Positions 11,630 to 53,854 of a DNA stretch of 64,000 nucleotides are shown piece by piece. Location: contig JAITWK010000025.1 in assembly GCA_031285295.1 (NCBI GenBank), forward strand, positions 2,967 through 66,966, given 5' to 3'. A model generated the notes under the pieces. It was not told the DNA's origin, ran no database searches, and was given only the letters and a program-made list of their open reading frames with translations. A program made the translations under genes and the position numbers. The DNA comes from Deltaproteobacteria bacterium (GTDB lineage Bacteria > Desulfobacterota > Desulfovibrionia > Desulfovibrionales > Desulfovibrionaceae). How positions within the stretch are numbered: position 1 is the first letter of the stretch; each line of letters starts with the position of its first letter.

Positions 11630-11638
11630 AATCACCCC

Positions 11639-11706
11639 AAAAAAAAAGAGAGTTAGGTGGAAGAAATTTCCAACGCACTGCAAAAAAAGGCAGTACTCCT
11701 AACTCT
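11639..11706 (-). terminator. putative rho-independent terminator downstream of tkt
   Basis: On the minus strand, AGAGTTAGG (11706-11698) pairs with CCTAACTCT (11657-11649) and is followed by C plus a T9 run. The 40-nt loop holds an inner ACTGC/GCAGT hairpin. Confidence 0.5.
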
Positions 11707-11751
11707 TTTTAAAAGAATATGGCTGTAAAGCGACAAAGTCAAGCCTAAACG

Positions 11752-13812: not shown

Positions 13813-14462
13813 TATTCTTCCTCCATTTGGAAGGCCTTAAGCCGTTCGGCATAAGGCGGAAAATTAAAAAAGGCCGAGCCGGAGACAAGCACATCTGCTC
13901 CAGCGGCCAAGAGGCGCGGTGTATTGGTCGGGTCAACCCCGCCATCGACCTGAATCAGGGCGCTGGATCCGGCGGCTTTGAGTTTTGCCTTGAGTTCGGA
14001 AATTTTATCATAGGCCAGCGGCATGAATTTTTGCCCGCCAAAGCCGGGGTTAACGCTCATGATCAGCGCCAGATCCAGCTTATCCAGCACATAATTAAGG
14101 CTGCACAGCGGCGTGGCCGGATTGAGCGCCACACCGGCCTTCATGCCCAGACGCCGGATTTCGTCCAGCGTGCGCGGCAGGTGCGCGGCGGCCTCGACAT
14201 GTACCACCAGCAGATCCGCCCCGGCCTCGGCAAAGTCGGCCAGATAGCGTTCCGGATGTTCGATCATAAGATGCACGTCAAAAAAAAGCCGGCTGGTCTG
14301 GCGCAGTCTTTTGATGACCGGCGGCCCAAAGGTGATATTGGGTACGAAAGCGCCGTCCATGACGTCCCAGTGCGCCCAGGTCAGCCCGGCCTGTTCCAGA
14401 GCCTGAAGCTCCTCGGCCAGGCGGCCGAAATCGGAAGAAAGCAAAGAGGGGGAAAGAATCAT
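13812..14462 (-). CDS. rpe: ribulose-phosphate 3-epimerase
   Basis: MILSPSLLSSDFGRLAEE, HWDVMDGAFVPNITFG and MSVNPGFGGQKF. Confidence 0.96.
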   Translation of the reverse strand: MILSPSLLSSDFGRLAEELQALEQAGLTWAHWDVMDGAFVPNITFGPPVIKRLRQTSRLFFDVHLMIEHPERYLADFAEAGADLLVVHVEAAAHLPRTLDEIRRLGMKAGVALNPATPLCSLNYVLDKLDLALIMSVNPGFGGQKFMPLAYDKISELKAKLKAAGSSALIQVDGGVDPTNTPRLLAAGADVLVSGSAFFNFPPYAERLKAFQMEEE

Positions 14463-22881: not shown

Positions 22882-23184
22882 GTGACCTTTCATAGCGGTG
22901 AGGGCGGCAAGTTCCTCATAACAACGGCTAGAGAGGGCAAGCCCCATGTGGAGCGCGTTACGGAAATCAGGCCACCGGAAAACTGTTCCAGCCAGGAACT
23001 TTTCAACGAACCGGCGCGACGCAGTTTGAAGGAATAGTGGCATGACTTTTGCTAATTGTATAACAACATCAAGCATTGAATCCGCTGACAGATTCCTTGA
23101 ATTGAGACTCCACCGGGCTATGAATTTAGCGTTGTTACTATAACCACAACTCGCGCATAAGCGCGTTTCACCATAAAGAGTACC

Positions 23185-24648
23185 ATGCGGCGCACTTATT
23201 TTCTCCTTCCTGGGCTCGGTATGGGTCTGCTATATTGTTCCCTGAACATCGGATTAATCCTTCTCAATGTACGACGTGCGTCAGGAATGCCTGGAACCGG
23301 CAAGGGCGACCCTTCCGCCCTGGTGCATTTTGCCATGGTCGCCCTGGTGGCGCTTGGGCTGTCATTCATTCTTAGAAATGGAATGGGGCGGCTTCGCCCG
23401 CTGACCGTGCTTTTGGGGGTGGCGGCACTTTTTTGCGCGTTCCTGCCTGCAATGCCAACGGAATTGCTCACCGAGCTGGTCAACGGCCGCCCCCCGATAT
23501 TGGCTTTGTTCATGTCCCTGTTCATGCCCGTGGGCTTTTTTCTGTTTTTCCGGGCCGTGCCAAGCGGCAACGAAGCGTTTGCCTTTTCGATGATCCATGT
23601 AGGCAATGAACTTTTGTGGTCGCTGTTCTTTCCCCTGTTCAGCACCATTGCTTCGCAGGTGTCCCTCACGTTTGTCGTGTATGTATACTCTCTGAACTGC
23701 TGGGTGGTTGGACTTGCCGGACTTTGCCTTGCCATAGCCTTTGGCTATGCGGTGCGGGAAACTGCCGCCACATCTGTTCGTACTACGCAGCCCGTATCGA
23801 GCGAGCCTCTCCTGCGGGAAAAATGCACTGTGTTGCTTCTGGCATTCGCGGCAGGCATAGGCGTTTTTGGAATGATGGGCTTCCAAATGGGCTCATTCAT
23901 GCCCAAGGCAGCCATGAACCCGGAACTATTGAGTATTCCCTATTTTATTTTTCTGTTCCTGCTCCCTGTCGCCGGGCATTTTCTGGACACAAGGCCAGAA
24001 AAACTCATGCTGATCTGCATTCCCGGCCTTGCTGGACTATTTTGCCTGAGCCTCGCCTGGCAAAACGGCCTGATTGCCCCGATGAGCATGTATTATCCGT
24101 TCAGTATCGCGCAGCAGATTAGTTTGCTTATCTTCTACACCACAACTGCCAGAATGCTGAAAGGAAAAGCCATTTTCCCCTTCATAATTTCCTTGGGATT
24201 TTGCCTGCATATCGCGCATTTTGGCGGTATGTTCCTGCGCGGACTGGTTCAGGATCTGCCGCATGGAGTGACGGCGGCGTCTTTGCTTCTGCTCGTAGGG
24301 ACTGCGCTGTGCCTGTGGCGTTTCCGCACACAGTGTGCAAAGGAGCCGAATTTGTGGCCCGTGGCACAGCGAAGCACCAATATGGCCGCATTCATTGCGA
24401 AACCAGGAGCAGAATCATCCGCACAGTCGGATTATACAGCCTTTGCTGTGCGTTATAGCCTGAGTGAACGGGAAATCACGGTTATCACCATGCTGGCTCA
24501 GGGTCGCTCCTCTGAAGCTATAGCTGAAGATTTGAAGGTGGCGGACTCCACTATCCGCACCTATATTTCCCGCATTCTGCGGAAAACAGGAACAAAAAAC
24601 CGGGCTGCGCTCATGGAACGCGTCATCATAGAGAAGCAGACGGGCTAA
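23185..24648 (+). CDS. membrane-embedded LuxR/GerE-family transcriptional regulator (about 12 TM segments plus a C-terminal HTH)
   Basis: 487 aa. By eye there are about 12 hydrophobic helices in residues 1-390. The C-terminus LSEREITVITMLAQGRSSEAIAEDLKVADSTIRTYISRILRKTGTKNRAALM is a LuxR-type HTH. Confidence 0.85.
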   Translation: MRRTYFLLPGLGMGLLYCSLNIGLILLNVRRASGMPGTGKGDPSALVHFAMVALVALGLSFILRNGMGRLRPLTVLLGVAALFCAFLPAMPTELLTELVNGRPPILALFMSLFMPVGFFLFFRAVPSGNEAFAFSMIHVGNELLWSLFFPLFSTIASQVSLTFVVYVYSLNCWVVGLAGLCLAIAFGYAVRETAATSVRTTQPVSSEPLLREKCTVLLLAFAAGIGVFGMMGFQMGSFMPKAAMNPELLSIPYFIFLFLLPVAGHFLDTRPEKLMLICIPGLAGLFCLSLAWQNGLIAPMSMYYPFSIAQQISLLIFYTTTARMLKGKAIFPFIISLGFCLHIAHFGGMFLRGLVQDLPHGVTAASLLLLVGTALCLWRFRTQCAKEPNLWPVAQRSTNMAAFIAKPGAESSAQSDYTAFAVRYSLSEREITVITMLAQGRSSEAIAEDLKVADSTIRTYISRILRKTGTKNRAALMERVIIEKQTG

Positions 24649-24961: not shown

Positions 24962-26290
24962 ATGAATAATGCCTTACCACAATACTCGCCGCAGGTTCTT
25001 TCATCTCTTGCAGAAACCTGCGCCGCTCTCGCCAAGGGAGACTACGGGCGGGCCAAGGAACTGTTTGCTCTGACCGCCGGGCAACAGAATTCCCCGGTTA
25101 TCGCGGAGCTGGCCGAAGCGTTCGGTTTTATGCTGGTCAAAGTGGAAGCCAGGGAGTTTCATCTGGAAAAACTCGCGGAAGATCTTGAAGTTGCATATAA
25201 GGAGCAAAGTCAGTTGCAAAAGACATTGGCCAAGGAAAATAAGCAACTCCGCGAAAATTTACGGAAAGACACGGCCCAGCAACGCATTGTGGGCACAAGC
25301 CCGGTTATGAGGGAGATCATGTCCCAAGCCGAGCGCATCGCCCAGGTGGACGCTACGGTTCTTATTACCGGGGAAACAGGCACCGGCAAAGGTATGCTTG
25401 CCAGAACCCTGCATGACGACGGCGCACGGGCGGCTGGCCCTTTTGTGGCCATCAACTGCGCGGCGATTCCCTCAACCTTGCTTGAAAGTGAACTGTTCGG
25501 CATAGAAAAAGGCGTGGCTTCCGGCGTAACAGCCCGCATGGGGCGTTTCGAGCAGGCCGACGGCGGAAGCATCTTTCTGGATGAAATCGGCGATATGCCG
25601 CTCGAAAGTCAGGCAAAAATCCTGCATGTCATTGAAAACCGCTGTGTGGAACGGATAGGAGGCCGCAAGAGCATACCTGTCAATGTGCGTATCATCGCGG
25701 CGACCCATAGAGACCTTGCCGCCATGTGCGAGGAAAAACTATTCCGTTCGGATCTGTACTATCGCCTGAACGTCATACGCCTGCATGTGCCGGCGTTACG
25801 GGAGCGTCCTGAAGATATACCCGGCCTTGTCCGCTATTTTCTTGAGCGTTGCGGGCGGCGTAACCCCGGCGCGGTATCGGGCATTACCAAAGAGGCTATG
25901 CGGCGCATGATGGCGCATACCTGGCCCGGCAATATCCGGGAACTGGAAAATGAGACGGAACGCGCTGCACTTCTGGCTCAGGGCAGTTCCATCACGCCCC
26001 AGGATCTGTCTTCCATTCTCTCATCCCTGGCACCGCAACCCATGCAGGCCGATGCTCCGGAGTTGCTGCACCCTTCCCGAAAACCCGTGAAAAAAAAGGG
26101 CACTCCCGGAAATGCATCTGCCTCCCTGGTCGCACAGGCCGCGCCTGTTCGCGCACTTGTTGATATGGAAGCGGAAATCGTGCGCCGGGCTTTGGCTCAG
26201 ACAGGCGGCAATAAAAGCCAAACCGCCCGTCTGCTTGGCATCAGCCGGGAAGGGTTACGCAAGATGCTCAAACGCCTTAATATTTCTTAA
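24962..26290 (+). CDS. sigma-54-dependent (NtrC-class AAA+) transcriptional activator without a recognisable sensor domain and with a degenerate GAFTGA loop
   Basis: Walker A GETGTGKG, Walker B GGSIFLDEIGDM, and RSDLYYRLNVIRLHVPALRERPEDI. The C-terminal Fis-type HTH is GGNKSQTARLLGISREGLRKMLKRL. The L1 loop reads ESELFGIEKGVASGVTARMGRFE. Confidence 0.9.
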   Translation: MNNALPQYSPQVLSSLAETCAALAKGDYGRAKELFALTAGQQNSPVIAELAEAFGFMLVKVEAREFHLEKLAEDLEVAYKEQSQLQKTLAKENKQLRENLRKDTAQQRIVGTSPVMREIMSQAERIAQVDATVLITGETGTGKGMLARTLHDDGARAAGPFVAINCAAIPSTLLESELFGIEKGVASGVTARMGRFEQADGGSIFLDEIGDMPLESQAKILHVIENRCVERIGGRKSIPVNVRIIAATHRDLAAMCEEKLFRSDLYYRLNVIRLHVPALRERPEDIPGLVRYFLERCGRRNPGAVSGITKEAMRRMMAHTWPGNIRELENETERAALLAQGSSITPQDLSSILSSLAPQPMQADAPELLHPSRKPVKKKGTPGNASASLVAQAAPVRALVDMEAEIVRRALAQTGGNKSQTARLLGISREGLRKMLKRLNIS

Positions 26291-26317: not shown

Positions 26318-26779
26318 TTATACCGCATGTAACGGATCAAATCTCTCCGTTTGCACAGACGGTTCCGGGGTAATGTCGTCCATCGCCGCCTCGATAGCCC
26401 CCACAATGTACGCCATCAAATCACAGAGGAACACGGGATACACACCTTCTTCCGCGCCTGTAGCACCTGTCACGACAGGAAAATCCAGCCGGTAGCTGTA
26501 ATAGAGAATCCCATCTTCGGAATTTACACCAAAAACACCACCTGCCGTTCCTTCCCATAGATGGTTGCGTAGCATCAGAGCTTCAAGAGCGCCTTGTCCT
26601 GGTGCGCCCAGGGCGGCCTGGATGAACAGGGCACTATATTCGGCCTCGTAAAAAAAAGAGAAGCGTATGCCTTCAATTTCGGCCATCGCGCGACCGTTCT
26701 TATCCAAAATGCAAGCAGAATTTCCCGTGTATTCGCCAAGATACGCAACCTGTGCGGCGGCTTCATCGAAATAGTTCAT
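26318..26779 (-). CDS. T3SS class I (CesT/SycE-like) chaperone, second of a tandem pair
   Basis: 153 aa, small and acidic. MNYFDEAAAQVAYLGEY...FIQAALGAPG...LMLRNHLWEGTAGGVFGVNSEDGILYYSYRL follows the class I chaperone pattern. AAGAGGATGTT precedes ATG 26779. The 5' part of ORF 26318..27091 overlaps the neighbouring chaperone gene in another frame. Confidence 0.65.
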   Translation of the reverse strand: MNYFDEAAAQVAYLGEYTGNSACILDKNGRAMAEIEGIRFSFFYEAEYSALFIQAALGAPGQGALEALMLRNHLWEGTAGGVFGVNSEDGILYYSYRLDFPVVTGATGAEEGVYPVFLCDLMAYIVGAIEAAMDDITPEPSVQTERFDPLHAV

Positions 26780-26789
26780 AACATCCTCT

Positions 26790-27224
26790 TTAAACCCATA
26801 CTGCGGCGGCGGAAATGGTTTCTTTCGGGGCAAGGCGGCTCTGCCAGTACTGCGCCAGTCCGGCCTGCTGCGCGATCTTTTCAATGAATCCCTGTGCGAC
26901 TTCCCGATCCGGCGAAAATCGACGGGAAAGGCAAAGCAGACCGCTTTCCGCATCCAGTCCCAGAATGCCGCCGCCTGTCCCTGCCCAGGCATAGTTTCCC
27001 TGCATAAAATCGCACAGGATTTCCTCGCGTTTCGCATCCGCCGGCAGTGCGCCGATACAGGCGCAGGAGACCAGTTCCTCAGTTTCTTCACTGAAGTTGA
27101 AGGTGAACAGGGAACCCAGAATTTCGGCGGACACAGCGCCCTCCATGCCGAGATGGAGGGCAGGAGTCGCCATATGGTCGGATAAGGCCTTCAACAGTGT
27201 ATTGGTATGTTCTCTGGCAGTCAC
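26790..27224 (-). CDS. T3SS class I (CesT/SycE-like) chaperone
   Basis: 144 aa. LLKALSDHMATPALHL...LVSCACIGALPADAKREEILCDFMQGNYAWAGTGGGILGLDAESGLLCLSRRF follows the typical chaperone pattern (IG.LP, N..W....G..LGLD...G.L.L). Confidence 0.7.
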   Translation of the reverse strand: MTAREHTNTLLKALSDHMATPALHLGMEGAVSAEILGSLFTFNFSEETEELVSCACIGALPADAKREEILCDFMQGNYAWAGTGGGILGLDAESGLLCLSRRFSPDREVAQGFIEKIAQQAGLAQYWQSRLAPKETISAAAVWV

Positions 27225-27235
27225 AGTTGTCTCCT

Positions 27236-29296
27236 TTATTCTGCAACAGACGCTGCGGGTGCGGCACTCTGCGGCGTCAGGGTATAGCTGTAGCCTGGAG
27301 TAGAAGCAAAGGCCGGCGTCATGGAACCATTATCGTGTACGGTAAGCAGCACTTCCATTTCGCACCGTACAAGTGATTTCCCGCTGTCCAGCAGGCACGG
27401 CGTGATGTCTGCCGCAAAATTGGCATTAAGGCGTGTTATATGATCCGGTCTTTCTTCCGCAATGGCCTTGATGGAATAGACCGTTTCGCCCTTATCGTTG
27501 TGGCCATGCAATGCGATGTTGAACTCGGTCATACCGGGCTGAGGCAGGAGAATGCCGGAGAAGGCAAGTGCCTCACCCTGCGCTTTTGCGGTTATTTCAC
27601 CGGGTATGCTCTGGTTTGCCAGTGACATAAGGGCTGTCGCCACACGAGAATTTTTATCAGCCAGTTGAATAACAGCATCCATCGCCGCCAAATCCGAACT
27701 GTGATGGAATGTCGCGCCGAGGCTGCCCTCCTGAAAATTCTGGGGAATCTTCTCACCCGGCGCAAAGCTATGCCTGCCAATTTTGTATGTGGTGCGCAGA
27801 GCATCGACAATAAAGGTGTCCACTTTGTGGGCACTATCAATATTGTCGAGCCGGTATTGCAACCCGGCGAGCATGAGCTCTTGCGCTTCGTTTGAGAGCG
27901 TGCCTTCCGCTTTCAGAACACCCTGCCCGGAATACGGCGTAATCGTGGAAAGCGTGCCCAGGCCGCCCATTTCCTCACGGGTGAGAATCACTTCGTTGCC
28001 GATGCGCATCTCCGGGTGATCACCGTGGGCTTTCAGGGTATCTACCTGTTTTGCAAGCCATGCCGAGAATGTCGGCAAATCCTCAAGCTGGCTGATAACG
28101 GCTTCCATATTGGCAACCATCTGCTTAATGCCGCCGGCATCGGAAAAAGGAGAACCCTGCTCCATTGTCTGAATGGCCCGGTTCAGCATTGCCTGCGCCT
28201 GATCCTCAGTAATGGGTTTCTGGCAGAGAGTCATATATTCATCGGCAGTAGAATTGCGAATCCACCCCTGCACTCCCTGATAAAATTCCTTCACGTCTGT
28301 GGGGATGCGCTCGCGGTTGTTCTGGCCTTCAATAGCGAGCAGACCGGCGCGCTGCCTCAGGGAGGTAGTGAAGTTCATGGCGTGCTGGAAGATATCCTTG
28401 GCATTGCCGAAAAAGCGCTTAAAGCCTTTCCAGGCGGCAGAGGCCGAGCTGTCGTGATGCACCGTGCCGCTGCCCTTAAAAGAAATGCCCCGGCAGCCGT
28501 TGGGTTCCATCTTGACAAAGAGCATACGCGTATCCCCTGTTCCCTGCGGACCGCCTGCGGGGGCTTCGGAATCCCTGGGCAGCCTTGCGAACAGAACGGT
28601 TTTGCGGCTGTTGGGTGTTTCCACGTTGCGTATATCCACACCCCGCGATTTGAAGGCATCTCCAAGATGCTGGTAGTCCTTCATGTGGCTTGAGGAACGT
28701 CCGTAGGAATTGGCCTTCTCCAGAAAGGACTGAAGCAAGCCCTGGGGATCTTCCACAAACATGGCCCCTTCCCTGTACAGGGCCGGAGCATTGCCGCCAG
28801 AGGACTGCGCGGCCTTGGCGGAACCGAGAGCCTGCAAATACCACATCAGCTTGGCAACTTCCTTCTTATCAGCCCGTTCAGGATGACCGCCCTCCATGAT
28901 TGTGTCGAAAAGCTGCTTGCCCTCGGTGACGTAGTTCTGGATTTTCTGCGCGACATCAGGCCCTTTCACTCCCCTAGTGGGCATAAGCGCCACGGTGGCC
29001 TGGGAACCTTCGCCGATGCTGATCGGGATCACACCCGGTTGTGGGGGATTAGCGCGAATTTGCGTTGCCAGAGTTGTGAACTTGTCCGAGGTATCATTAT
29101 GTGCCAACTCCCCCCTGAGCACGGCTGGTGAAGCGTTTGGGAAACGCTGTTGGGCTTTCGCCAGAGTGTCCGCCGGGTTGGGGAGCAGGTGCCCGTACCT
29201 GAGTTCCTGAACCTGAGCTTCGTTTGCATTGGCAGGGTCGTTAAGCAGTCCGGCCGGAGCGTTCATAGCATTGCCGCTTATAGGTAGAGTAGACAT
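27236..29296 (-). CDS. candidate T3SS effector or secreted protein (686 aa), function unknown
   Basis: AGGAGGCATCT precedes ATG 29296 (MSTLPISGNAMNAPAG...). The N-terminus is Ser/Thr/Asn/Pro-rich with no signal peptide and no TM segment. Two class I chaperone genes follow, and a sigma-54 promoter lies upstream. Confidence 0.6.
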   Translation of the reverse strand: MSTLPISGNAMNAPAGLLNDPANANEAQVQELRYGHLLPNPADTLAKAQQRFPNASPAVLRGELAHNDTSDKFTTLATQIRANPPQPGVIPISIGEGSQATVALMPTRGVKGPDVAQKIQNYVTEGKQLFDTIMEGGHPERADKKEVAKLMWYLQALGSAKAAQSSGGNAPALYREGAMFVEDPQGLLQSFLEKANSYGRSSSHMKDYQHLGDAFKSRGVDIRNVETPNSRKTVLFARLPRDSEAPAGGPQGTGDTRMLFVKMEPNGCRGISFKGSGTVHHDSSASAAWKGFKRFFGNAKDIFQHAMNFTTSLRQRAGLLAIEGQNNRERIPTDVKEFYQGVQGWIRNSTADEYMTLCQKPITEDQAQAMLNRAIQTMEQGSPFSDAGGIKQMVANMEAVISQLEDLPTFSAWLAKQVDTLKAHGDHPEMRIGNEVILTREEMGGLGTLSTITPYSGQGVLKAEGTLSNEAQELMLAGLQYRLDNIDSAHKVDTFIVDALRTTYKIGRHSFAPGEKIPQNFQEGSLGATFHHSSDLAAMDAVIQLADKNSRVATALMSLANQSIPGEITAKAQGEALAFSGILLPQPGMTEFNIALHGHNDKGETVYSIKAIAEERPDHITRLNANFAADITPCLLDSGKSLVRCEMEVLLTVHDNGSMTPAFASTPGYSYTLTPQSAAPAASVAE

Positions 29297-29334
29297 AGAT
29301 GCCTCCTGGGTATCAGTGTTGATGCCTAAGGTAG

Positions 29335-29350
29335 AGCAAGGAATATGCCA
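29335..29350 (-). promoter_or_regulatory. sigma-54 (-24/-12) promoter
   Basis: The minus strand reads TGGCATattccTTGCT against the consensus TGGCACG-N4-TTGCW. GG and GC have the exact spacing. It lies 39 nt upstream of ATG 29296. Confidence 0.8.
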
Positions 29351-29485
29351 TAGGGGGCATCGTGTTGCCGTACAAGGGGCAGAGAGCACCCGGTATGAAC
29401 GTCAGCCTATAGGCAAGGCTTGCGTAGTCGGCAGTTAGACTGATGCGCGGATATCATCGGCAACAAAGTGGACAGGCTGTAACGC

Positions 29486-30835
29486 TCAAAACGTGAACGC
29501 CAGGCCAAGCGTCAGAAGATGTTGATCATAGGTATAGAGATCAGAGCTGGAGTTGTTGTTCGTATACTGCCAGCCCATCTCAAGCTGGACGCTCTCGGCA
29601 ATCTGTTTGATAACCATTGCGGACGCCCGCCATTGCGTATCTTTCCGCTTTGCATCGTCAAGAATTGTGGCTCCGCCTTTATAATCTTCGTTATGCCATG
29701 CGCCGCTGAGAATAAGTTCCGTTTCCCATGGCAGGTTCAGAAAGAGAAAAACGCCCGGTTCAATCCCGGAAAAGCTATACCGACGTTCATCGGTAGCACT
29801 CATATAACCCTTAACGCCGGCCATCAGGCTGTGCTTCGCCTCACCGAAAAACCAACGAGCATACGGGCCACCCCAGGCGTATGTGCCGCTGCGGTCTCTG
29901 ACCGCAATGTCCTCGCGGTGCTCAATGCCACCTTGTCCGATAAGATGCAGATTGTCCCGTGCGGCAAAGACCAATGATGCTTCGCTTCCATACAGAGCCA
30001 CGGATTTTTCCTCATTTTCCAGCAACAGTTCCGTTTTTAGGCGGACTTCAGCCATAAGAGAATTCTCAAGATAACGCAGACCAACGGCAGCTCTGCCGAA
30101 GGTCATATCCCGGCGCGGCGTAGTTTCATTGTACCAGCGCTGATATCCGGCCACATCACCCACCAGCCACCAGGGCGAATCCGCCGAGGCTCGCCAGCCC
30201 ATATCAATCACGCCATGCAGGTAGCTGCCCATTGACTCCCGCTCGGAACTCTCCCGGTCAAGATAGATAGGCAGTCTGCCAACCATAACGTCGCGCCCGG
30301 CGGGGCCGGTGGTCATATTGCTGTCGTAGATCATACCGCCCGCAAGGCGTCCTTTGACTCTGAAGCTATCGACCCGCTGTTCCATACTCGCAAGCGCCTT
30401 GCCCATATCGCCTTCGGCAATGGAAGGATCAAGCCGTTTCGCCTCGGCCAGTTCCGCTTTTGCCGCTTCATTCTGTCCCATGGTCAGCAGCAAATGGGCG
30501 AGTTCCAGGCGCAGTATGGCATTCTCCGGCAAAGTTTCGATAAGACGTTCGTAAGCCATGCGGGAATGGTTGTATTTCCCGGCGAGCTTGGCGGAACGCG
30601 CCAAAGCCAGGTTGACCTCGAAATCATCCGGGGTTTCGCGCAACAGGTTCAGATACAGCGCGAAGGCTCCGGCATGATCCCCGGACTGCATCAAAGATGC
30701 GGCGTCTGCCTTGCCGGAAGACAGGGATGCCGCTACCGCCGCGCTGGCAGAAAAAGACCAGAGCGGCGGCAGCAGGGTGATAGTCAGAAACAGAACCAGA
30801 ACGGCATGGCGGAAGAGTGGCATGGTATTCTTCAT
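29486..30835 (-). CDS. outer-membrane protein with N-terminal TPR and C-terminal beta-barrel, Slam/DUF560-like (type XI secretion candidate)
   Basis: 449 aa. Signal peptide, then TPR-like helices (GAFALYLNLLRETPDDFEVNLALARSA..., MGQNEAAKAELAEAKRLDP). About 290 aa of alternating beta-strand pattern follows (GGMIYDSNMTTGP...). It ends in the OMP-type LTLGLAFTF. Confidence 0.5.
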   Translation of the reverse strand: MKNTMPLFRHAVLVLFLTITLLPPLWSFSASAAVAASLSSGKADAASLMQSGDHAGAFALYLNLLRETPDDFEVNLALARSAKLAGKYNHSRMAYERLIETLPENAILRLELAHLLLTMGQNEAAKAELAEAKRLDPSIAEGDMGKALASMEQRVDSFRVKGRLAGGMIYDSNMTTGPAGRDVMVGRLPIYLDRESSERESMGSYLHGVIDMGWRASADSPWWLVGDVAGYQRWYNETTPRRDMTFGRAAVGLRYLENSLMAEVRLKTELLLENEEKSVALYGSEASLVFAARDNLHLIGQGGIEHREDIAVRDRSGTYAWGGPYARWFFGEAKHSLMAGVKGYMSATDERRYSFSGIEPGVFLFLNLPWETELILSGAWHNEDYKGGATILDDAKRKDTQWRASAMVIKQIAESVQLEMGWQYTNNNSSSDLYTYDQHLLTLGLAFTF

Positions 30836-30837
30836 GG

Positions 30838-32043
30838 TTATTGTTTAACACCGTGTCCGCTGCCGCTGCCGGAACTACCACCCACTGCGCCTGAATAATT
30901 GAGATTCATATCCCTGCCGTTCGTTTTTCCTGTCACGTTCAGATGATCACCAGATTGGCCCAGAGGAGCTTCCACACCCAAGTCCACCAAAGGGTCATTC
31001 GGAAGAGCCGTAAAGCTGAAGTTCCCCCCTTTGTCCAGCGTCGCGATATTGCCGCTTCCACTGACACTGAAGGCCAGGTTCGCCAGCCCCCCATCATCAA
31101 TCTGCATGTCAACAGAATTGATCGTAGGTGTATTTGCGAGATCCGCAATGCCTATGCTGAAACTGCCGGTTCCGGGGTTGCCGCCGAAATTTGCGCTCAG
31201 CGTGCCCGCATAGGTTCCGCTGAACGATGCCACCTGCTGCAAGTCGGCTCCGGGCTTTGCTATGCCCGTTCCACCGGAACCCGGATCCAGCACAACATGA
31301 TCATCCTGCGGAATAAACGGTGCTTCCGGCACTTCCACCTGCGCAAGATCCAGAGGAAGCGTTGTCGTTTCCTGTGCATCAGCAATTTCGCCCACAGAGA
31401 GAAAGCCCTGTTCCGGGCCGTCTGTTGCTCCCTTACGGAAAAGCAGCGTGGTGCCGGGTATACCCATGGGATATGCCTGACCAGTCAGCTTGTCGCGGAT
31501 GTAGAGGGAGTTGGGTGAAGAGGACTGCACCAGGATAACCTTGGTAGCGTCCGCAATCTTTTCCACAATGACCTCGGTTCCTCTGATACCTACCTGTACC
31601 TCAGAGGTTTCCACACTCATGGCGCTGGGATCACCTTCGGTTATTCTGCCGCTGATCAGACGGGTCACGCCCTTGGCAAGATCCAGATTCAGCGCATTTT
31701 TCACGCTCCCGCTCTCGGAATAGATATATTCAGTGATGGTCGCCTGGGAATCCGGGGCCAGCATCAGCACGGAATCATCCAGAAACAGAACGTTGAGCCT
31801 GCCGACCGGGCTGGTGTTCAGCGTATCGCCGGAAAACACCGGACTTTTTCCGGCCAGCGGTTCCTGCGTTGCTGCCCGGTCAGCCCAGGCTTGTTTACGG
31901 GCGGCGATAACATTACCCGCAGTTTCCACGCCAAGAGCGGGGCTGACCGCAAACACGGCGATCAAAACCGCGAAAAGCGGTGCGGTAAAAAAGGGACACT
32001 GCCATAAGGGGCGGGTTACGCATTGCATGGCATCCTCCATCAT
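30838..32043 (-). CDS. secreted FecR-domain protein with a Gly-rich beta C-terminal domain
   Basis: Signal peptide (LFAVLIAVFAVSPALG). The FecR-like part includes VFSGDTLNTSPVGRLNVLFLDDSVLMLAPDSQATI and VGIRGTEVIV. The C-terminal part reads FSGTYAGTLSANFGGNPGTGSFSIGI...LAFSVSGSG...FSFTAL...LNVTGK. The gap to the Slam-like gene is 2 nt (stop at 30838, next start at 30835). Confidence 0.6.
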   Translation of the reverse strand: MMEDAMQCVTRPLWQCPFFTAPLFAVLIAVFAVSPALGVETAGNVIAARKQAWADRAATQEPLAGKSPVFSGDTLNTSPVGRLNVLFLDDSVLMLAPDSQATITEYIYSESGSVKNALNLDLAKGVTRLISGRITEGDPSAMSVETSEVQVGIRGTEVIVEKIADATKVILVQSSSPNSLYIRDKLTGQAYPMGIPGTTLLFRKGATDGPEQGFLSVGEIADAQETTTLPLDLAQVEVPEAPFIPQDDHVVLDPGSGGTGIAKPGADLQQVASFSGTYAGTLSANFGGNPGTGSFSIGIADLANTPTINSVDMQIDDGGLANLAFSVSGSGNIATLDKGGNFSFTALPNDPLVDLGVEAPLGQSGDHLNVTGKTNGRDMNLNYSGAVGGSSGSGSGHGVKQ

Positions 32044-32062
32044 TCGTAAATTGCTCAGGTTG

Positions 32063-32878
32063 TCAGCGCGGGGGCGCGATTACATAGTGCTTTGTCAACA
32101 CCAGCAGCAGCACCGGGGGGTCAAAGCCCAATCTGGCAGCCGTAGCTGTATTCAGTGAAAACAGGGGCGGCAGATTCGGAGTGAAAGTTGCATCTTCCAT
32201 GCCAGAGCCTTCCTGCATAAGAAAAGCGGCCAGTTCCCGATTCAGGCGCTCACCGTTACCGGCCCACGGTGCTATAAGCGCACCATGTTCCGTAGCGGTA
32301 TGGTCGGTGGCACTGATGGGCATGATGCCCCGGCTGAGCAAAAGTTCCAGCAATTCCGCAGAATTCTGATTGTCCGGCGCAAAGCAAGCGGAGCCATCAA
32401 GCAACAACGCGTCTATTTCGTCGAAAAACAAGGAATCTACGGCTTCGCGGCATCCAGCGGCATCTGCCTGCTGCAAATCCGTATAAGTAAAGAGTGTAAA
32501 CCCGGAACTGCCTGCCCCGGAGGAGTATAGTTTTGATGCGGCAACTTTGTTGGCGGCATCCAGCAACAGCGTCGAAATACCTTGCTCTTCGGCAGGGGCT
32601 GATTCCGGCGCTTTGATGCTGCCAAGGCGCGAGAACTGCGTGACCTCGTGCAAGGTTAGCACGAGGTTGATCCAGACTTCCTTGTTTTCCCGCAAGGCAC
32701 CGGGGATGCCGTTGAAGGAGGCAGACGGGCTTTGCCCGTCGCGGGCACAGGGGGGCGCCGGGGGGGGAGTCCCCCCGATATGATCCGAAGGCGCGGCTAA
32801 ACAAGAATGCCGTGCGTCCAGAAGGAGGAAGACGACGCATGACAGGCATATGAAAATGACAGCAAAGAGGGTTCGCAT
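32063..32878 (-). CDS. periplasmic protein, ABC_sub_bind/YfiR-like C-terminus (weak)
   Basis: Signal peptide MRTLFAVIFICLSCVVFLLL. The C-terminal FSLNTATAARLGFDPPVLLLVLTKHYVI resembles the end of uncharacterised ABC-type substrate-binding proteins. Confidence 0.4.
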   Translation of the reverse strand: MRTLFAVIFICLSCVVFLLLDARHSCLAAPSDHIGGTPPPAPPCARDGQSPSASFNGIPGALRENKEVWINLVLTLHEVTQFSRLGSIKAPESAPAEEQGISTLLLDAANKVAASKLYSSGAGSSGFTLFTYTDLQQADAAGCREAVDSLFFDEIDALLLDGSACFAPDNQNSAELLELLLSRGIMPISATDHTATEHGALIAPWAGNGERLNRELAAFLMQEGSGMEDATFTPNLPPLFSLNTATAARLGFDPPVLLLVLTKHYVIAPPR

Positions 32879-32884: not shown

Positions 32885-32905
32885 GGGTATGCAATTTGCA
32901 TTCCC
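32885..32905. promoter_or_regulatory. 21-bp near-perfect palindrome giving sigma-54-like GG-N10-GC on both strands
   Basis: GGGTATGCAATTTGCATTCCC, with 9 of 10 arm positions pairing. The plus strand gives GG(32886-7)...TTTGCA(32895-32900). The minus strand gives GGAATGCAAATTGCA. It lies in the 56-bp divergent spacer. Confidence 0.45.
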
Positions 32906-32934: not shown

Positions 32935-33264
32935 ATGGATATAACTGTCTCGCAAGATGGCCGCTTCACGCTTGTTGCCTTACGCGGCGTTCTCGATGCC
33001 CTTACCGCGCCAGAGCTTGAGGAAAAAAATCAGCAAATTGTTGATAACGGCGCAACCATTGTCATTCTTGATCTTTCAGCCATGGAGTTCATCAGTTCAG
33101 CGGGTCTGCGTGTGTTTCTATCGCTGGCCAAAGCGCTGCGAAAAACGGGAGGAGAAATTCGTTTTGCAGGCTTGCAGGAGGCCATACGCGAAGTGTTCGC
33201 CATTTCCGGCTTTACAAAAATGTTCGCCGTTTTTCCTGATGCTGCTACAGCGGCCAAGGATTAG
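32935..33264 (+). CDS. STAS-domain anti-sigma-factor antagonist (SpoIIAA/RsbV/BtrV-like)
   Basis: MDITVSQDGRFTLVALRGVLDALTAPELEE...LDLSAMEFISSAGLRVFL carries the conserved phosphorylatable Ser context. Confidence 0.88.
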   Translation: MDITVSQDGRFTLVALRGVLDALTAPELEEKNQQIVDNGATIVILDLSAMEFISSAGLRVFLSLAKALRKTGGEIRFAGLQEAIREVFAISGFTKMFAVFPDAATAAKD

Positions 33265-33282
33265 CCTCATAAGGGGGAGCGA

Positions 33283-33771
33283 GTGCAAACGCTTTCATGC
33301 ATAACCACAGCGGAAGACATCCGCCTGGTGGAAAACTCAATCCTTGCCATTGCCGATGAGCGGGCGGTCGATTCGCTTTCCCGTGCCCGGATGCAACTGG
33401 TTCTTGATGAGATGCTTACCAATATCCGTTTCCACAGTTACCCGGAAGGTCCGGGCTCTATTCATATCATTATCTATCCGCAGGTCGGTGACGGAGACTT
33501 CATTCTCCATTGTGTCATCCAGGATTGGGGGCCTGAGTTCAATCCCCTGGTCGATAGCCCAAAGCCAGAATTGTGGGAAAATATTGAAGAAAGGCCCATC
33601 GGTGGTCTGGGACTACATCTGGTTCACAATATGCGCTGCGGTCTCAGATATGAGCGGGTACGGGAAGGTGCGCCATCTGCGGGCCGGAACGAGCTTACAC
33701 TCAGCTTTCCCCTGCGCTGCGGGCCGGGGGGATTACCGGAGAAATTCACTCCGCCGGGTAGCTCCTCCTGA
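33283..33771 (+). CDS. anti-sigma-factor-type Ser/Thr kinase (RsbW/SpoIIAB/BtrW-like, HATPase_c)
   Basis: N-box LVLDEMLTNIRFHSY, G1 IQDWGPEFNP and G2 RPIGGLGLHLV. GTG start preceded by GGGGGAG. Confidence 0.85.
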   Translation: MQTLSCITTAEDIRLVENSILAIADERAVDSLSRARMQLVLDEMLTNIRFHSYPEGPGSIHIIIYPQVGDGDFILHCVIQDWGPEFNPLVDSPKPELWENIEERPIGGLGLHLVHNMRCGLRYERVREGAPSAGRNELTLSFPLRCGPGGLPEKFTPPGSSS

Positions 33772-35747
33772 TGCTGCGCTCCATAAGAACCCGATCTATC
33801 AGAACCAGACTGGCCTTTGCTGGCGCTATTCTGGTTCTTTTGACTGCCGGAAGTCTTATGTGGTTCGCGCACAAGGACACCGTTACCGCCTTGCGTACCC
33901 TAGAGCGCCAAGGGCTCAACAATGTGATCTATCTTCTGGAACGCGAGCTGACCGCCGCGCATAGTGACGCCCTGAAGGCCAAAATCACGGCTGTGGAAAA
34001 TATAAAAACCATGCTCCGCCAGACGGGGGAGGCGGCATGCGCCATTCTGGGCGAAACCGCCGACATGGAAGAATCTCAAAGACGTGAGTTACTCTCCCTC
34101 TGGGCGGATACTCCGGCTGTTCCGGATCTTCATATCCGTTTTTTTCAGATCGATGAGGACGCAGAGGGGTTACACCCATCGTGGCCTCGGGGGGCTACGG
34201 GGGGTGCAGCCCCTCGGCATGAATACAAGGCTCTGCCCGAACCAGCACAAAAAGCCATACCATCCCTTCTGGCAGGCAGCGCCGGTGAATTCATTCCTGA
34301 TGGTGAAGCTCTGGCCTGGATAACCAAACATGACAACATGGTTGTGCTGTGTTCCTACTCTCTCAAAGATGCGGTTGACGCGGCGAAAGCAAATCTTGCG
34401 GTTGTGGCGGAGCGTTTCAAAGAATTATTGCGGCAGGTTGACATACAGGAAACCGGGTTCGCCGCCGTACTGGATGCTTCCGGCCGTATTGTGGCAGGGC
34501 CTGAGCATGCGGTCATTCCGGACAAACTGTGTGAAACACTTCTCGCTGGAACATTTTCCGGCGCAGCGCGGCGCGTCATGGTTCTCCGGGAGGAAGGTGA
34601 AAGCGATCAGGCCAAAAGTGCATCACCTAGCGAAACCCTTTATCTTCTCGGCTATTTTCGTCCGCTGCAATGGCATATCGTGCTGTCCGCCCCTTTGGAT
34701 GAATTGGAAGCTCCCGCCTACGCGCTTGTGGACGGGCAACTGCGAATAACCTTTGCCGTGCTAGCGGCCGGACTCCTGCTGGGCTTTATCATCGCAGCCC
34801 GCATCGCAAAGCCGATCCGCCGTTTGGCAAACCTTGCCAGAGAGTTGCCGGAGCAGGACATTTTAAGTCTTGATACTGCCGCTTTGACCAGGAAACTGCC
34901 CTTACGGCGCAAGGATGAGATCGGCGAACTGGCTCAGGCGTTTGGGCACATGGCTAAAGAATTGCAAACAAACGTCACACGTTTGGTCGAATCCACAGCC
35001 GTGCGCCAACGCATGGAAAAAGAGCTGCAAGTTGCCCGCGACATACAGTATGGCATTCTGCCAACGGTTTTTCCTGTAGGTACAGCGGTTGATCTGTATG
35101 CCGCCATGCGAACCGCCAGAGAAGTTGGCGGGGATCTCTATGACTTTTTCTTCCTCGATGAGCGCCGTCTCTGCTTCGCCATCGGCGATGTGTCGGACAA
35201 GAGTATTCCGGCGGCACTCTTTATGAGCATGACCGTGACCCTGCTCCGGGTCGCCATGCGTGACGAAGGCCTGTCGCCGGAAGCGGCTATGGCCCGCGTG
35301 AATGACGCCTTGGCGGCTGACAACCCCCGCATCATGTTTGTCACTCTGTGCATCGGCGTGCTTGATATGGTTTCAGGCGAGGTAGTGTACAGCAGTGCCG
35401 GGCATATGCCCCCTGTGCTGATAGGCGAGAGCGGCGCATGTTCCCTTCCGCGCTCCGGTGATATGGTGGCCGGTGTTTTTGAGGGAGACAGCTTTGTCAG
35501 CATACGGCACGTTATGCAGCCCGGCGAGACTCTTTTTCTCTATACCGACGGCGTTTCCGAGGCCATGAATGCCGCGAGGGAACAATATGGAGAGAAACGC
35601 CTTTTAGCGCATCTGACGGATTGCTACGGCATACCCTCTACCGAAACGGTCGGTTCCGTCTTCCGAACCGTGGATGAACACGCGGGCGACGAAGAGCAGT
35701 CCGATGATATAGCCATCCTGACAATACGCTACCTTGGTAAACGCTGA
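33771..35747 (+). CDS. membrane sensor PP2C (SpoIIE/RsbU/BtrU-like) phosphatase with a periplasmic domain and HAMP
   Basis: TM1 (LAFAGAILVLLTAGSLMWFA), about 290 aa extracytoplasmic, then TM2. HAMP region (RRKDEIGELAQAFGHMAKEL). The PP2C part includes ARDIQYGILP, REVGGDLYDFFFLDERRLCFAIGDVSDKSIPAALFMS, YSSAGHMPP, LYTDGVSEA and DDIAILTIR. Confidence 0.9.
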   Translation: MLRSIRTRSIRTRLAFAGAILVLLTAGSLMWFAHKDTVTALRTLERQGLNNVIYLLERELTAAHSDALKAKITAVENIKTMLRQTGEAACAILGETADMEESQRRELLSLWADTPAVPDLHIRFFQIDEDAEGLHPSWPRGATGGAAPRHEYKALPEPAQKAIPSLLAGSAGEFIPDGEALAWITKHDNMVVLCSYSLKDAVDAAKANLAVVAERFKELLRQVDIQETGFAAVLDASGRIVAGPEHAVIPDKLCETLLAGTFSGAARRVMVLREEGESDQAKSASPSETLYLLGYFRPLQWHIVLSAPLDELEAPAYALVDGQLRITFAVLAAGLLLGFIIAARIAKPIRRLANLARELPEQDILSLDTAALTRKLPLRRKDEIGELAQAFGHMAKELQTNVTRLVESTAVRQRMEKELQVARDIQYGILPTVFPVGTAVDLYAAMRTAREVGGDLYDFFFLDERRLCFAIGDVSDKSIPAALFMSMTVTLLRVAMRDEGLSPEAAMARVNDALAADNPRIMFVTLCIGVLDMVSGEVVYSSAGHMPPVLIGESGACSLPRSGDMVAGVFEGDSFVSIRHVMQPGETLFLYTDGVSEAMNAAREQYGEKRLLAHLTDCYGIPSTETVGSVFRTVDEHAGDEEQSDDIAILTIRYLGKR

Positions 35748-36002: not shown

Positions 36003-36018
36003 TGGCACAGTAAGTGCT
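36003..36018 (+). promoter_or_regulatory. sigma-54 (-24/-12) promoter of the main T3SS gene train
   Basis: TGGCACagtaaGTGCT with exact GG/GC spacing, 45 nt upstream of ATG 36064. Confidence 0.75.
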
Positions 36019-41935: not shown

Positions 41936-43777
41936 ATGGTTTTTACATTCTTACGCGCCGTACTCTTTTCGGCGCTACTCGTTTTGTTCATGGCGGCCGC
42001 ACCCGTGCAGGCCGCCCCTTTCGCGTTCACAGCCCAGAACGAACCCATGCCGGATTTCCTGTGTGCCTATGCGAACGCACAACAGAAAATCTGCTCTGTC
42101 AGTTCCGAGATCGGCGGCTCTGTTACTGGCAACCTGGAGTTCCGCACAGAAGACGCCTTTTTTGCCTTTCTTGAGCGCAGCCACGACATTGTGACCTATG
42201 TAGATGCGGAAACAATCTATTATTACGGCCGGTCGCAAATGGAGTCCGCAACGCTTCCTCTCTACCGCGTCAGTGTTTCCCAAATCAGCACGGCCTTGCG
42301 AGAAATGGAAGCCTATGACAGGCGTTATCCCCTGCGGCCAATCAGTAACGGGAAAATGTTGCGGATTACCGCGCCGCCAGCCTACATCGCTATCGTCACC
42401 CAGACCGTCGGCGACCTTGAAGCCAGCTTTACAGCCGCCAAAGGCACCCGTGTTTTTCGCCTGAAACACGCCTGGGCCGATGATATTGAGCTTAACTTCA
42501 TGAACCAGACAGTGAATATTCCCGGAGTGGCAACGCTTATCCGCCGTATCACAGCCGATGGGGGCGATGCCCCCGCTCCGGTCAGCGGCGGAGAGACAGG
42601 CGGTGCTGTAGAACGACTCAAGGGCACTGGCCTTGCGAGCAGAACCGGCACCCAGGAAGCTCCCCAAAGAGCTTCCCCGGCAACCTCCAGAACAGCCGGG
42701 CCGGGGAGCGGTTCACGCAATAATGTAGTCAGCGGCGCACGCATTGTCGCGGATCCGCGCCTCAACGCCGTTATCGTCTGGGATGATGAAGAGCTGATGC
42801 CGCTTTATGAAACTCTCGTGACAGAGCTGGATCAGCCCGTATCTCTCGTGGAGATCCGGGCGGCCATCGTGGATATATCCGTTGAGCGAATGCAGGAACT
42901 CGGTATCGCCTGGGATGTCGCGCGGCCCGTTGCCGGGAGTTCCGGCTTTGGTGCCACGGGCGGAGCCAACGTGGGCGTGGACGATACCGCCGTGGATTTT
43001 GCGAGTAATATGGGCTACGGCCTCAACCTCACCACTTTGTATAGAAACGGACTTGATACTTTTATGGCCAGAGTGCGTGCCCTGGAACAGGACGGAGACG
43101 CCTCCGTGCTCTCCCGTCCGGCTGTGCTGACTCTGGACAATATCCAGGCATCGCTTGAGGTCACCAACACATATTACATTGAGGTTGCCGGGCAGGAAGA
43201 AGTCGATCTTTTTGACGTTACCTATGGAACCATTCTGCGCGTAACGCCACACGTTATCAAAGACGAGGATTCCGGCGCGGTCTCCATCAAGCTTACCGTG
43301 CATGTGGAAGACGGCGGCAGCCAGGCGGCGGCGTCCGGCACTGGCATCAGTTACCCCATTGTCTCCAAAACTCAGGTCAACACTCAGGCACTGGTGGGAG
43401 ACGGTCAGGCGCTAATCGTGGGCGGGCACTACTATGAAACTTCCACAAGCGGCGATAACGGCATTCCCGTTCTCAAAAGCATCCCGCTGCTGGGCGGCCT
43501 GTTCAAAACACAGAGCGATCAATACCGCAAACAGGAACGGCTGTTTATCATCGCTCCCCGGCTGGTGGATCCGGCTAAACTACAGCAGGAGGCGCAGCAG
43601 TACGATGAGTTGTTCGCGCGTACCATGACCACGCAGCCGGTGGTTCGCATCGAGCGCAGCACCGGCGGATGCGCAAGGCAGCGCCGGGTGGCTGTAGAGC
43701 CAGTACCCGTTCCGGCACCAGTATCTGCCCCTTCCGCCGGGCCGCTATCCGGGCCGGGATCCGAGGATATCCAATGA
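41936..43777 (+). CDS. sctC: T3SS outer-membrane secretin
   Basis: 613 aa with a signal peptide. The secretin domain includes ADPRLNAVIVWDDEELMP, SLVEIRAAIVDI, VLSRPAVLTLDNIQASLEV, ILRVTPHVI, VNTQALVGDGQALIVGG and GIPVLKSIPLLGGLFK. Confidence 0.95.
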   Translation: MVFTFLRAVLFSALLVLFMAAAPVQAAPFAFTAQNEPMPDFLCAYANAQQKICSVSSEIGGSVTGNLEFRTEDAFFAFLERSHDIVTYVDAETIYYYGRSQMESATLPLYRVSVSQISTALREMEAYDRRYPLRPISNGKMLRITAPPAYIAIVTQTVGDLEASFTAAKGTRVFRLKHAWADDIELNFMNQTVNIPGVATLIRRITADGGDAPAPVSGGETGGAVERLKGTGLASRTGTQEAPQRASPATSRTAGPGSGSRNNVVSGARIVADPRLNAVIVWDDEELMPLYETLVTELDQPVSLVEIRAAIVDISVERMQELGIAWDVARPVAGSSGFGATGGANVGVDDTAVDFASNMGYGLNLTTLYRNGLDTFMARVRALEQDGDASVLSRPAVLTLDNIQASLEVTNTYYIEVAGQEEVDLFDVTYGTILRVTPHVIKDEDSGAVSIKLTVHVEDGGSQAAASGTGISYPIVSKTQVNTQALVGDGQALIVGGHYYETSTSGDNGIPVLKSIPLLGGLFKTQSDQYRKQERLFIIAPRLVDPAKLQQEAQQYDELFARTMTTQPVVRIERSTGGCARQRRVAVEPVPVPAPVSAPSAGPLSGPGSEDIQ

Positions 43778-45360: not shown

Positions 45361-45594
45361 ATGTTGGATGTAAACGCTCAGGATTTTGATGTCAGCGCAG
45401 CTTTGGCGCGCGATCCCGATGGCTACGCTCTGCGCACTATCAAGGACAGGCTTGAAACCATGAAATCCGGCTTGAAACGAACCATGGACAAGGGACTGCC
45501 CGCCGATCAGTTTTCCGTGGCAAACAATTTGCATAAGTCATGTCAGACGGCGCAGGATCTGGTGGAGCAGTTCTGGTCCCAGCCGCGAAAATAA
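45361..45594 (+). CDS. YscE-like needle co-chaperone candidate
   Basis: 77 aa and helical. LKRTMDKGLPADQFSVANNLHKSCQTA resembles my recollection of YscE (LKKDMMRGGDAKQYQVWQRESKALESA). It sits between sctD and sctF, as in ysc. Confidence 0.55.
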   Translation: MLDVNAQDFDVSAALARDPDGYALRTIKDRLETMKSGLKRTMDKGLPADQFSVANNLHKSCQTAQDLVEQFWSQPRK

Positions 45595-53838: not shown

Positions 53839-53854
53839 TGGCACGCTTCCTGCT
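53839..53854 (+). promoter_or_regulatory. sigma-54 (-24/-12) promoter in the sctS-chaperone spacer
   Basis: TGGCACGcttcCTGCT with exact spacing and a 7/7 match to the -24 box TGGCACG. It lies 65 nt upstream of ATG 53920. Confidence 0.8.

Follow-up and report, generated by a model that had tools for sequence, protein, structure and literature searches.

The window analysed here, 64,000 nucleotides of contig JAITWK010000025.1 from a Deltaproteobacteria bacterium of the family Desulfovibrionaceae, carries at positions 32935 to 35747 of the forward strand a three-gene module, which is embedded within an island of type III secretion system (T3SS) genes and encodes a STAS protein, an RsbW-like kinase and a PP2C phosphatase. 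Partner switching is a textbook form of anti-sigma control, and a few systems have other or unknown outputs. We suggest, with slightly better than even confidence, that this module gates the expression of the island through the island's own sigma-54 enhancer-binding protein (EBP) and not through a sigma factor.

The switch module and its island

The gene content of the window was determined by a Pfam scan of all non-overlapping open reading frames (ORFs) of at least 110 residues. Housekeeping genes, including metK, panC, tkt, rpe, pheST, rplT, and infC, occupy 1 to 20.4 kb and are followed, at about 20 to 62 kb, by a non-flagellar, Ysc-type T3SS island. The island encodes the secretin SctC, SctD, SctJ, SctK, SctL, SctN, SctO, SctP, SctQ, SctR, SctS, SctT, SctU, SctV, and the gatekeeper SctW, together with SycN/YscX, a class II TPR chaperone, translocators, and CesT chaperones, and the closest relatives of its genes are found in the Desulfovibrionaceae. 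The longest sctD ORF runs about 110 nt into the end of sctC (43669-43777), and the true sctD start probably lies further downstream. No sigma-factor domain was found among the scanned ORFs of the 64 kb, the sole sigma-like Pfam match being the helix-turn-helix (HTH) of a LuxR/GerE protein (23185-24648), which is one of two transcription factors in the window, the other being the sigma-54 EBP (24962-26290). The island has no GGDEF gene. The gene map thus agrees with an earlier, sequence-only reading of this DNA, which had placed the module within a T3SS island and had seen no sigma factor gene in the window.

The module is composed of the following genes:

32935-33264, plus strand: single-domain STAS protein of the anti-sigma-factor-antagonist type, 109 residues, predicted phospho-site S55
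33283-33771, plus strand: GHKL serine kinase of the RsbW/SpoIIAB type, candidate anti-activator, 162 residues
33771-35747, plus strand: membrane sensor PP2C phosphatase, 658 residues, with a first transmembrane segment, a periplasmic Cache-like domain, a second transmembrane segment, HAMP, a coiled coil, and a SpoIIE/PP2C domain

The three ORFs are co-oriented and tightly packed, with an 18-bp gap followed by a 1-nt TGATG overlap, and a good Shine-Dalgarno sequence precedes each of them, so that the three-protein operon proposed in the sequence-only reading is retained, as are the identities that it gave to the products.

The STAS protein matches the Pfam STAS family (E-value 3.3e-21) and the anti-sigma-factor antagonist family TIGR00377 (5.9e-22), and its closest solved relatives are SpoIIAA proteins. 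Its FISSAGL segment aligns with FMDSSGL of SpoIIAA (PDB ID 1TH8:B), which puts S55 at the position of the SpoIIAA phospho-serine and supports the earlier view of a phosphorylatable serine within ISSAGL. The motif (Y/F)(I/V)SSAGLR is kept in 9 of 11 aligned STAS sequences; the remaining two, from the related loci L083 and L085, read YVSSFGLR with both serines retained, the phospho-serine thus being present in all 11.

The second protein, described before as a HATPase_c anti-sigma-type kinase, matches HATPase_c_2 (6e-15). Its similarity to SpoIIAB is weak, yet the E, N, and H residues of the N box align, and the G1 (D-W-G) and G2 (G-G-L-G) boxes are conserved across orthologs. Judged by these three boxes, it is a catalytically intact kinase of the RsbW type. 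The homolog search for the kinase yielded five close matches, none of which is from Bordetella or Chlamydia.

The third protein matches SpoIIE (1.9e-46) and HAMP (2.8e-11) and gives weak Cache matches, while its orthologs match dCache_2 at 1.6e-8. Hydrophobic segments at residues 14 to 33 and 324 to 347 enclose about 290 periplasmic residues, the domain size expected from the sequence-only reading, and the catalytic motifs GGDLYD, GDVSDKS, LYTDG, and QSDD with their metal-binding aspartates are conserved. The top match among curated families is SiaA (NF038263), at 64.5 bits against a cutoff of 700, which rules out membership in that family; PDB ID 6K4E is also among the matches. A homolog from a Chlamydiota metagenome-assembled genome (MAG; L023, about 9330-11710), with 43% identity over the PP2C domain, combines a periplasmic sensor, HAMP, PP2C, and an RsbW-like kinase in one 793-residue ORF, being an RsbU-RsbW fusion.

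The window trio therefore has the sequence features of a partner-switching module, and no cognate sigma factor is encoded with it. The same three protein types, a phospho-serine STAS protein, a GHKL serine kinase, and a SpoIIE-family PP2C, form the RsbV-RsbW-RsbU and SpoIIAA-SpoIIAB-SpoIIE systems of Bacillus. The window differs from these systems in having no sigma gene, with a sigma-54 AAA+ activator as the proposed output, and in its phosphatase, a sensor in the membrane that combines a periplasmic Cache-like domain with HAMP.

A sigma-54 activator linked to switch genes

The proposed output of the switch is the following gene:

24962-26290, plus strand: sigma-54 EBP, ortholog of DVUA0100, with a GVASGV L1 loop and a helical N-terminal domain at residues 1 to 105

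The EBP matches Sigma54_activat (7e-65) and HTH_8 (a Fis-type HTH) and is 46% identical to DVUA0100 from Desulfovibrio vulgaris Hildenborough, with which it shares the N-terminal motif LAEAFGxMLVKVEAREF. At residues ~184 to 189, GVASGV replaces the GAFTGA sigma-54 contact loop, so that the phenylalanine is absent. The GVA(S/T)G(V/I) loop is found in 113 of the 120 best EBP homologs, indicating a family-wide variant.

The first 108 residues do not match any Pfam domain. In the AlphaFold2 model of the EBP (pLDDT 90.7, from an alignment of 68 sequences), helices at residues 10 to 24 and 28 to 39 are followed by a 60-residue helix (45 to 104) leading into a standard AAA+ fold, and the fold search with this model gave only standard AAA+ activators, among them the NifL-NifA complex (PDB ID 9QQ6), and is uninformative on the N-terminal domain. 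The EBP had been called sensor-less; its candidacy as a non-sigma output gains support from comparative gene order, as described below, but the term does not strictly apply, since a conserved helical domain of about 105 residues forms the N-terminus of the protein. A profile of this domain (reference region 24962-25276 of the window) recovered 359 clusters at 50% identity among 1.84 billion representatives. Outside the EBPs, the domain stands before class III adenylate/guanylate cyclases and histidine kinases, after PP2C, or alone in proteins of about 140 residues (proteins carrying the domain are P0128, P0184, P0190, P0201, P0182, P0257, and P0166). When only the N-terminus of the EBP was used as query, the word-indexed protein search produced two matches. 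One of them, a 137-residue stand-alone homolog (L174), is encoded divergently to adjacent kinase and STAS genes and to a REC-PP2C gene. The profile-profile comparison with the phosphatase HAMP reached a probability of 8.6%, so that "HAMP-like" describes a resemblance of the domain and not an assignment. The domain has no invariant Ser or Thr, which makes a role as kinase substrate unlikely.

With its GVA(S/T)GV AAA+ domain, helical N-terminus, Fis-type HTH, and location in a T3SS island with sigma-54 promoters, the window EBP is of the DVUA0100 type. DVUA0100 was predicted computationally to be the sigma-54 regulator of the T3SS operons on pDV1 of D. vulgaris Hildenborough, and its odd GVATGV loop was remarked upon (Kazakov et al. 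2015, PMC4641369). The predicted operons contain DVUA0123 (antagonist), DVUA0124 (kinase), and DVUA0099, but these switch genes appear only in the supplementary regulon tables, where no link to EBP control is made (PMC4641369). Our literature search found no paper discussing DVUA0123, DVUA0124, and DVUA0099 and none linking partner switching with a sigma-54 activator.

The regulon of DVUA0100 parallels the window at the level of parts, having an ortholog EBP with the same N-terminal domain (GVATGV against GVASGV in the window), sigma-54 promoters before T3SS operons, and the same STAS, kinase, and Cache-HAMP-PP2C genes. The gene order differs. On pDV1, one operon ends with sctU, the EBP gene, and the gene for DVUA0099, a Cache-HAMP-PP2C protein like the window phosphatase, whereas sctR is followed by the STAS gene (DVUA0123) and the kinase gene (DVUA0124) in another operon elsewhere in the island. 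A 124-residue "hypothetical protein" annotated between DVUA0100 and DVUA0099 (DVU_RS16385; L081, 35742-36116) is likely spurious, being of low complexity, rich in Arg, Pro, and Thr, and without a family match. The module is thus not unique to the window and is already annotated on pDV1, where it has apparently not been discussed.

Three MAGs (L001 to L003) show the same order as the window, in which a binding-protein-like gene is divergent to the STAS-kinase-PP2C genes and a small-protein/chaperone/translocator operon follows. The islands of Halodesulfovibrio (L004) and of a Desulfovibrionales MAG (L168) carry a tight STAS-kinase-EBP operon beside sctV, with gaps of at most 27 bp, and a divergent PP2C gene adjoined by a PF04392 binding-protein gene. 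This order mirrors the antagonist-kinase-output order of Bacillus rsbV-rsbW-sigB, the EBP taking the place that sigB or sigF has in the classical operons.

A census of 16 loci with a GVA-type EBP placed switch genes within the EBP locus in 12, distributed as follows:

Switch genes beside the EBP, T3SS present: L004, L168, pDV1
Switch genes beside the EBP, DNA seen (4 to 10 kb per side) free of T3SS genes: L083, L085, L167, L170, L173, L100
Kinase-EBP pair alone, about 10 kb around it free of T3SS genes: L172
Switch genes at most 10 kb from the EBP: window, L169
DNA seen free of switch genes: L084, L171, L166, L124

EBP-STAS-kinase and EBP-STAS-PP2C operons are found away from any T3SS (L167, L173). 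Taken as a whole, the census indicates that the association tracks the EBP clade and not the T3SS. In L172, a gap of only 17 bp separates the kinase and EBP genes, with no STAS or PP2C gene within 10 kb on either side. Directly downstream of this pair (11301-14034) are seven tandem paralogous genes for small proteins of 115 to 130 residues without a Pfam match, followed by genes for a MacB-type ABC exporter, an outer-membrane factor, and a PAS-containing membrane-fusion protein, which may be the regulon of the L172 EBP.

The control loci were those of canonical EBPs from a metagenome scan with an N-terminal EBP alignment, which was dominated by the generic Walker-A pattern. The STAS, kinase, and PP2C hidden Markov models (HMMs) gave no match in 78 such loci (592 kb), and for those of at least 10 kb (348 kb) switch genes were found in 0 of 22. 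The comparison of 12 of 16 with 0 of 22 gives a Fisher p of 6.7e-7, which is indicative only, since the controls belong to other taxa and phylogenetic independence does not hold among the family loci. In the opposite direction, the HMM of the EBP N-terminal domain had no match in 76 loci from other phyla collected by PP2C similarity, which makes the link specific to this EBP clade and not general to partner switches. Across the more than 12 related loci examined, the module was never found with a sigma-factor gene beside it.

Four of the loci without T3SS genes encode kinase-HAMP-PP2C fusions of about 880 residues, with an N-terminal RsbW-like kinase, HAMP, and a C-terminal PP2C:

L083: 7270-9909
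L085: 7205-9820
L170: 7228-9954 and 13621-16281
L173: 5104-7764

The fusion genes always adjoin a GVASGV EBP gene and a second PP2C gene, and usually a STAS gene too. Their products resemble SypE, with HAMP replacing the receiver domain. The EBP N-terminal domain is absent from them, and they were therefore rejected as a Rosetta-stone fusion.

Sigma-54-type promoters and neighbouring genes

Sigma-54 sites were scored with a simple, self-made consensus matrix with a maximum of 29.5. The window has 8 sites scoring at least 27.5, compared with 1.56 +/- 1.25 in 200 dinucleotide shuffles, none of which reached 8. Lowering the cutoff to 27 gives nine sites, all at 23 to 58 kb and co-oriented with the downstream genes. 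Five of the nine are intergenic, lying before the LuxR gene, the gene of a 717-residue effector candidate, the translocator operon, the sctI-N operon, and a chaperone/effector pair. The individual sites, with one weaker site before the STAS gene and the copies of a palindrome described below, are:

36003-36018, plus strand, TGGCACAGTAAGTGCT: sigma-54-type promoter, 45 nt upstream of the ATG at 36064, in front of the chaperone/translocator operon's first gene, which comes directly after the PP2C gene
23038-23053, plus strand, TGGCATGACTTTTGCT: sigma-54-like site, score 29.0 of 29.5, the second-highest of the window, 132 nt upstream of the LuxR/GerE gene 23185-24648
29335-29350, minus strand: sigma-54-like site upstream of the gene of the 717-residue candidate effector and its CesT-type chaperone gene
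45518-45533, plus strand: sigma-54-like site in the intergenic stretch from sctD to the TPR/sctI-J-K-L-N operon
53839-53854, plus strand: sigma-54-like site between sctS and the genes of a CesT chaperone and a 468-residue protein
32885-32900, plus strand, GGGTATGCAATTTGCA: weak sigma-54-like site, score 26 of 29.5, 35 nt upstream of the STAS ATG
27820, 29461, 32542, 44214, 60307, and 60325: palindrome CMACWWWGTKG

The promoter downstream of the PP2C gene has an equivalent at the same position in L001 (5803) and L003 (6057). The 56-bp intergenic gap before the STAS gene contains the weak site but no other promoter-like element, and no sigma-70 promoter match was found in it. The weak site hints at possible autoregulation; it is not conserved in L002 or L003. 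A scan for sigma-70 promoters and terminators around the module operon gave nothing informative.

Candidate EBP sites were searched with the published DVUA0100 motif GCCAAC-N3-GTTGGC and a palindrome derived from it, CMACWWWGTKG. The palindrome, C(A/C)AC-WWW-GT(G/T)G, has 6 exact matches, where 0.41 are expected, all within the island. Two of them encode a GNFVVG repeat of SctV and others are also coding; one copy in a coding region is conserved in L002.

The STAS operon is faced by a divergent operon (29486-32878, minus strand) for a 271-residue binding-protein-like protein, a 401-residue FecR-domain protein, and a 449-residue TPR and Slam/DUF560-like outer-membrane protein, which is partly conserved beside the module in L001 and L002 and could act as an envelope signal relay to the periplasmic domain of the phosphatase. 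Its gene next to the STAS operon is:

32063-32878, minus strand: secreted binding-protein-like protein, 271 residues, transcribed away from the STAS operon, with its relatives in the C-terminal half of ABC_sub_bind periplasmic binding proteins

This protein is 26% identical (E-value 8e-15) to the L004 protein that matches PF04392, and homologs adjoin the module in L001, L002, L003, L004, and L168. It is a possible co-sensor for the periplasmic domain of the PP2C.

The LuxR/GerE regulator (plus strand, 487 residues) has a C-terminal HTH and an uncharacterised N-terminus of about 420 residues. A similar GerE protein is also encoded near the EBP in L167, and the regulator may form a second tier of the regulatory cascade. 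Between the EBP gene and the divergent operon, the minus strand encodes the 717-residue protein without a Pfam match and then a CesT-type chaperone (26318-29389). A 29%-identical homolog of the 717-residue protein (DVU_RS16555) adjoins a T3SS chaperone on pDV1, and the protein is probably a conserved effector.

Proposed control of the island

The proposal that the module gates the island through its EBP is based on the switch domains, the T3SS synteny, the linkage to the EBP, the sigma-54 sites, the DVUA0100 prediction, and the lack of a sigma gene. Without a signal, the kinase would keep the STAS protein phosphorylated on S55, and free kinase would bind the EBP and hold it inactive, probably via the N-terminal helical/coiled-coil domain, as an anti-activator comparable to RsbW for sigma-B and NifL for NifA. 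The Cache domain, perhaps together with the neighbouring binding-protein-like product, would sense a periplasmic signal that turns on the PP2C, which would dephosphorylate the STAS protein and so allow it to capture the kinase. Once released, the EBP would assemble and turn on sigma-54 promoters in front of the operons for translocators, apparatus, effector, and LuxR regulator. The assignments of the switch parts, the EBP, and these promoters come from sequence; the contacts between switch and EBP and the sign of regulation are proposed. Least certain are this sign and the identity of the small protein, kinase or STAS, that contacts the EBP.

Known activator control offers partial parallels for these steps. 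NifL is likewise a GHKL-containing anti-activator that binds and inhibits a sigma-54 EBP, but it is a large PAS-H-GHKL protein that answers to redox state and GlnK, with no STAS antagonist and no PP2C. In the HrpG-HrpV-HrpS system of Pseudomonas syringae, an EBP without a sensor domain controls T3SS genes and is itself controlled by HrpV and HrpG, as in our proposal. Neither HrpV nor HrpG, however, is related to GHKL kinases or to STAS proteins, no phosphorylation takes part, the T3SS is of the Hrp1 family, and the cascade runs via HrpL, a sigma factor of the extracytoplasmic function (ECF) type.

Several points weigh against this proposal. Gene adjacency is as compatible with switch genes that are regulated by the EBP as with switch genes that regulate it, and the wiring is taken from gene order only. 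The window EBP lies about 7 kb from the module in a separate operon, and L084, L171, L166, and L124 carry this type of EBP without switch genes in the DNA seen. The GVATGV EBP of L100, which has switch genes beside it, starts with a GAF domain and not with the helical domain, making the contact surface on the EBP uncertain. The matrix behind the sigma-54 sites is only an approximated consensus, and the composition of the control loci limits the linkage statistics as stated above.

A further such point, the location of the pDV1 STAS and kinase genes after sctR within a structural operon, itself predicted to be EBP dependent, would also fit a role in secretion like that of Bordetella BtrU/BtrW/BtrV. 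The switch might act post-transcriptionally on secretion or on the translation of T3SS substrates via a partner in the injectisome, with the EBP merely co-located and transcribing the switch genes. The Bordetella trio resembles that of the window in its domains and in its setting; BtrU, BtrV, and BtrW are encoded beside a Ysc-type T3SS locus, are needed for secretion, and influence secretion or translation through a mechanism as yet unknown (PMC7498569; PMC8256260), their output not being a known sigma factor. The number of the phospho-site, S55, happens to agree between the two. The Bordetella locus adds the ECF sigma factor BtrS and BtrA, an anti-sigma factor that is secreted, and transcription there is not sigma-54 dependent, whereas no such ECF sigma/secreted anti-sigma pair is found in the window. 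Because the EBP family keeps adjacent switch genes in six loci without T3SS genes within about 10 kb, and its N-terminal domain stands alone beside a STAS-kinase pair in L174, we regard a purely secretion-directed switch as unlikely.

Nearly the same standing, that of an unlikely alternative, is given to a STAS output, in which the unphosphorylated STAS protein would bind and activate the EBP or another target, and the kinase and PP2C would only set its phosphorylation state. STAS-only proteins serve as outputs in several Gram-negative systems (PMC8256260), with SiaC and SiaD as a precedent and similar proposals for SypA and RbaV; the SiaA and 6K4E matches of the window PP2C and the presence of a STAS gene in most EBP-linked loci are in line with this. 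SiaABCD of Pseudomonas aeruginosa and SypA/SypE of Vibrio fischeri are indeed partner switches with a non-sigma output, and SiaA is a membrane HAMP-PP2C protein. The Sia output, however, is a diguanylate cyclase, unlike the EBP output proposed here. The syp locus does include a sigma-54 EBP, but this protein, SypG, is a response regulator with a receiver domain, and SypA has no known target. It is the kinase gene that adjoins the EBP gene in the STAS-kinase-EBP order, as in rsbW-sigB, and L172 pairs the two with neither STAS nor PP2C nearby, both of which count against a STAS output. Finally, the kinase might be a true anti-sigma factor whose target, a member of the sigma-70 family, is encoded outside the window; its place in the island would then be incidental or a matter of co-regulation only. 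The domain set is that of RsbV/RsbW/RsbU, the 64 kb are the part of the genome in view, and chlamydial RsbW was reported to bind sigma-66, which is encoded elsewhere (PMC11619594). The chlamydial RsbU/RsbV1/RsbV2/RsbW system is similar in that RsbU is a sensor phosphatase with a periplasmic ligand-binding domain, like the window PP2C, and in that both organisms carry a T3SS, but its reported target is this housekeeping sigma factor and its genes lie outside any T3SS island; no sequence match was found between the window PP2C and the solved periplasmic domain of chlamydial RsbU. Since in the more than 12 related loci the conserved neighbour of the module is an EBP and never a sigma gene, such a canonical switch appears improbable, the most so of the three alternatives.

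The components of the module are ordinary, and it is their conserved coupling to a distinct EBP clade, as seen in gene neighbourhoods, that appears to be undescribed. If the EBP is indeed gated by the switch, it would add a new output class to partner switching and would explain the regulation of a widespread EBP family for which no sensor domain is known and whose sigma-54 contact loop is non-canonical. More tentatively, and as a possibility that we hold to be doubtful at present, the EBPs with a GVA(S/T)GV loop may as a class be governed by partner switching, with an RsbW-like anti-activator, a STAS antagonist, and the N-terminal helical domain of about 100 residues, itself undescribed so far, as the docking module. 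One adaptor domain would then let switches reach transcription, cyclic-nucleotide, and two-component outputs, and the T3SS islands of Desulfovibrionaceae would be one case among these.

In Chlamydia, perturbation of the switch lowers sigma-54-dependent late proteins. The idea offers a concrete hypothesis for the T3SS-linked switches of Bordetella and Chlamydia, whose targets might merit a fresh look at the sigma-54 activators of these organisms. The presence of the same parts on pDV1 (DVUA0099, DVUA0100, DVUA0123, and DVUA0124) makes D. vulgaris Hildenborough a direct test bed. For the Desulfovibrionaceae, a family that includes gut-associated species, a switch acting on the EBP would provide the first regulatory model of their T3SS.

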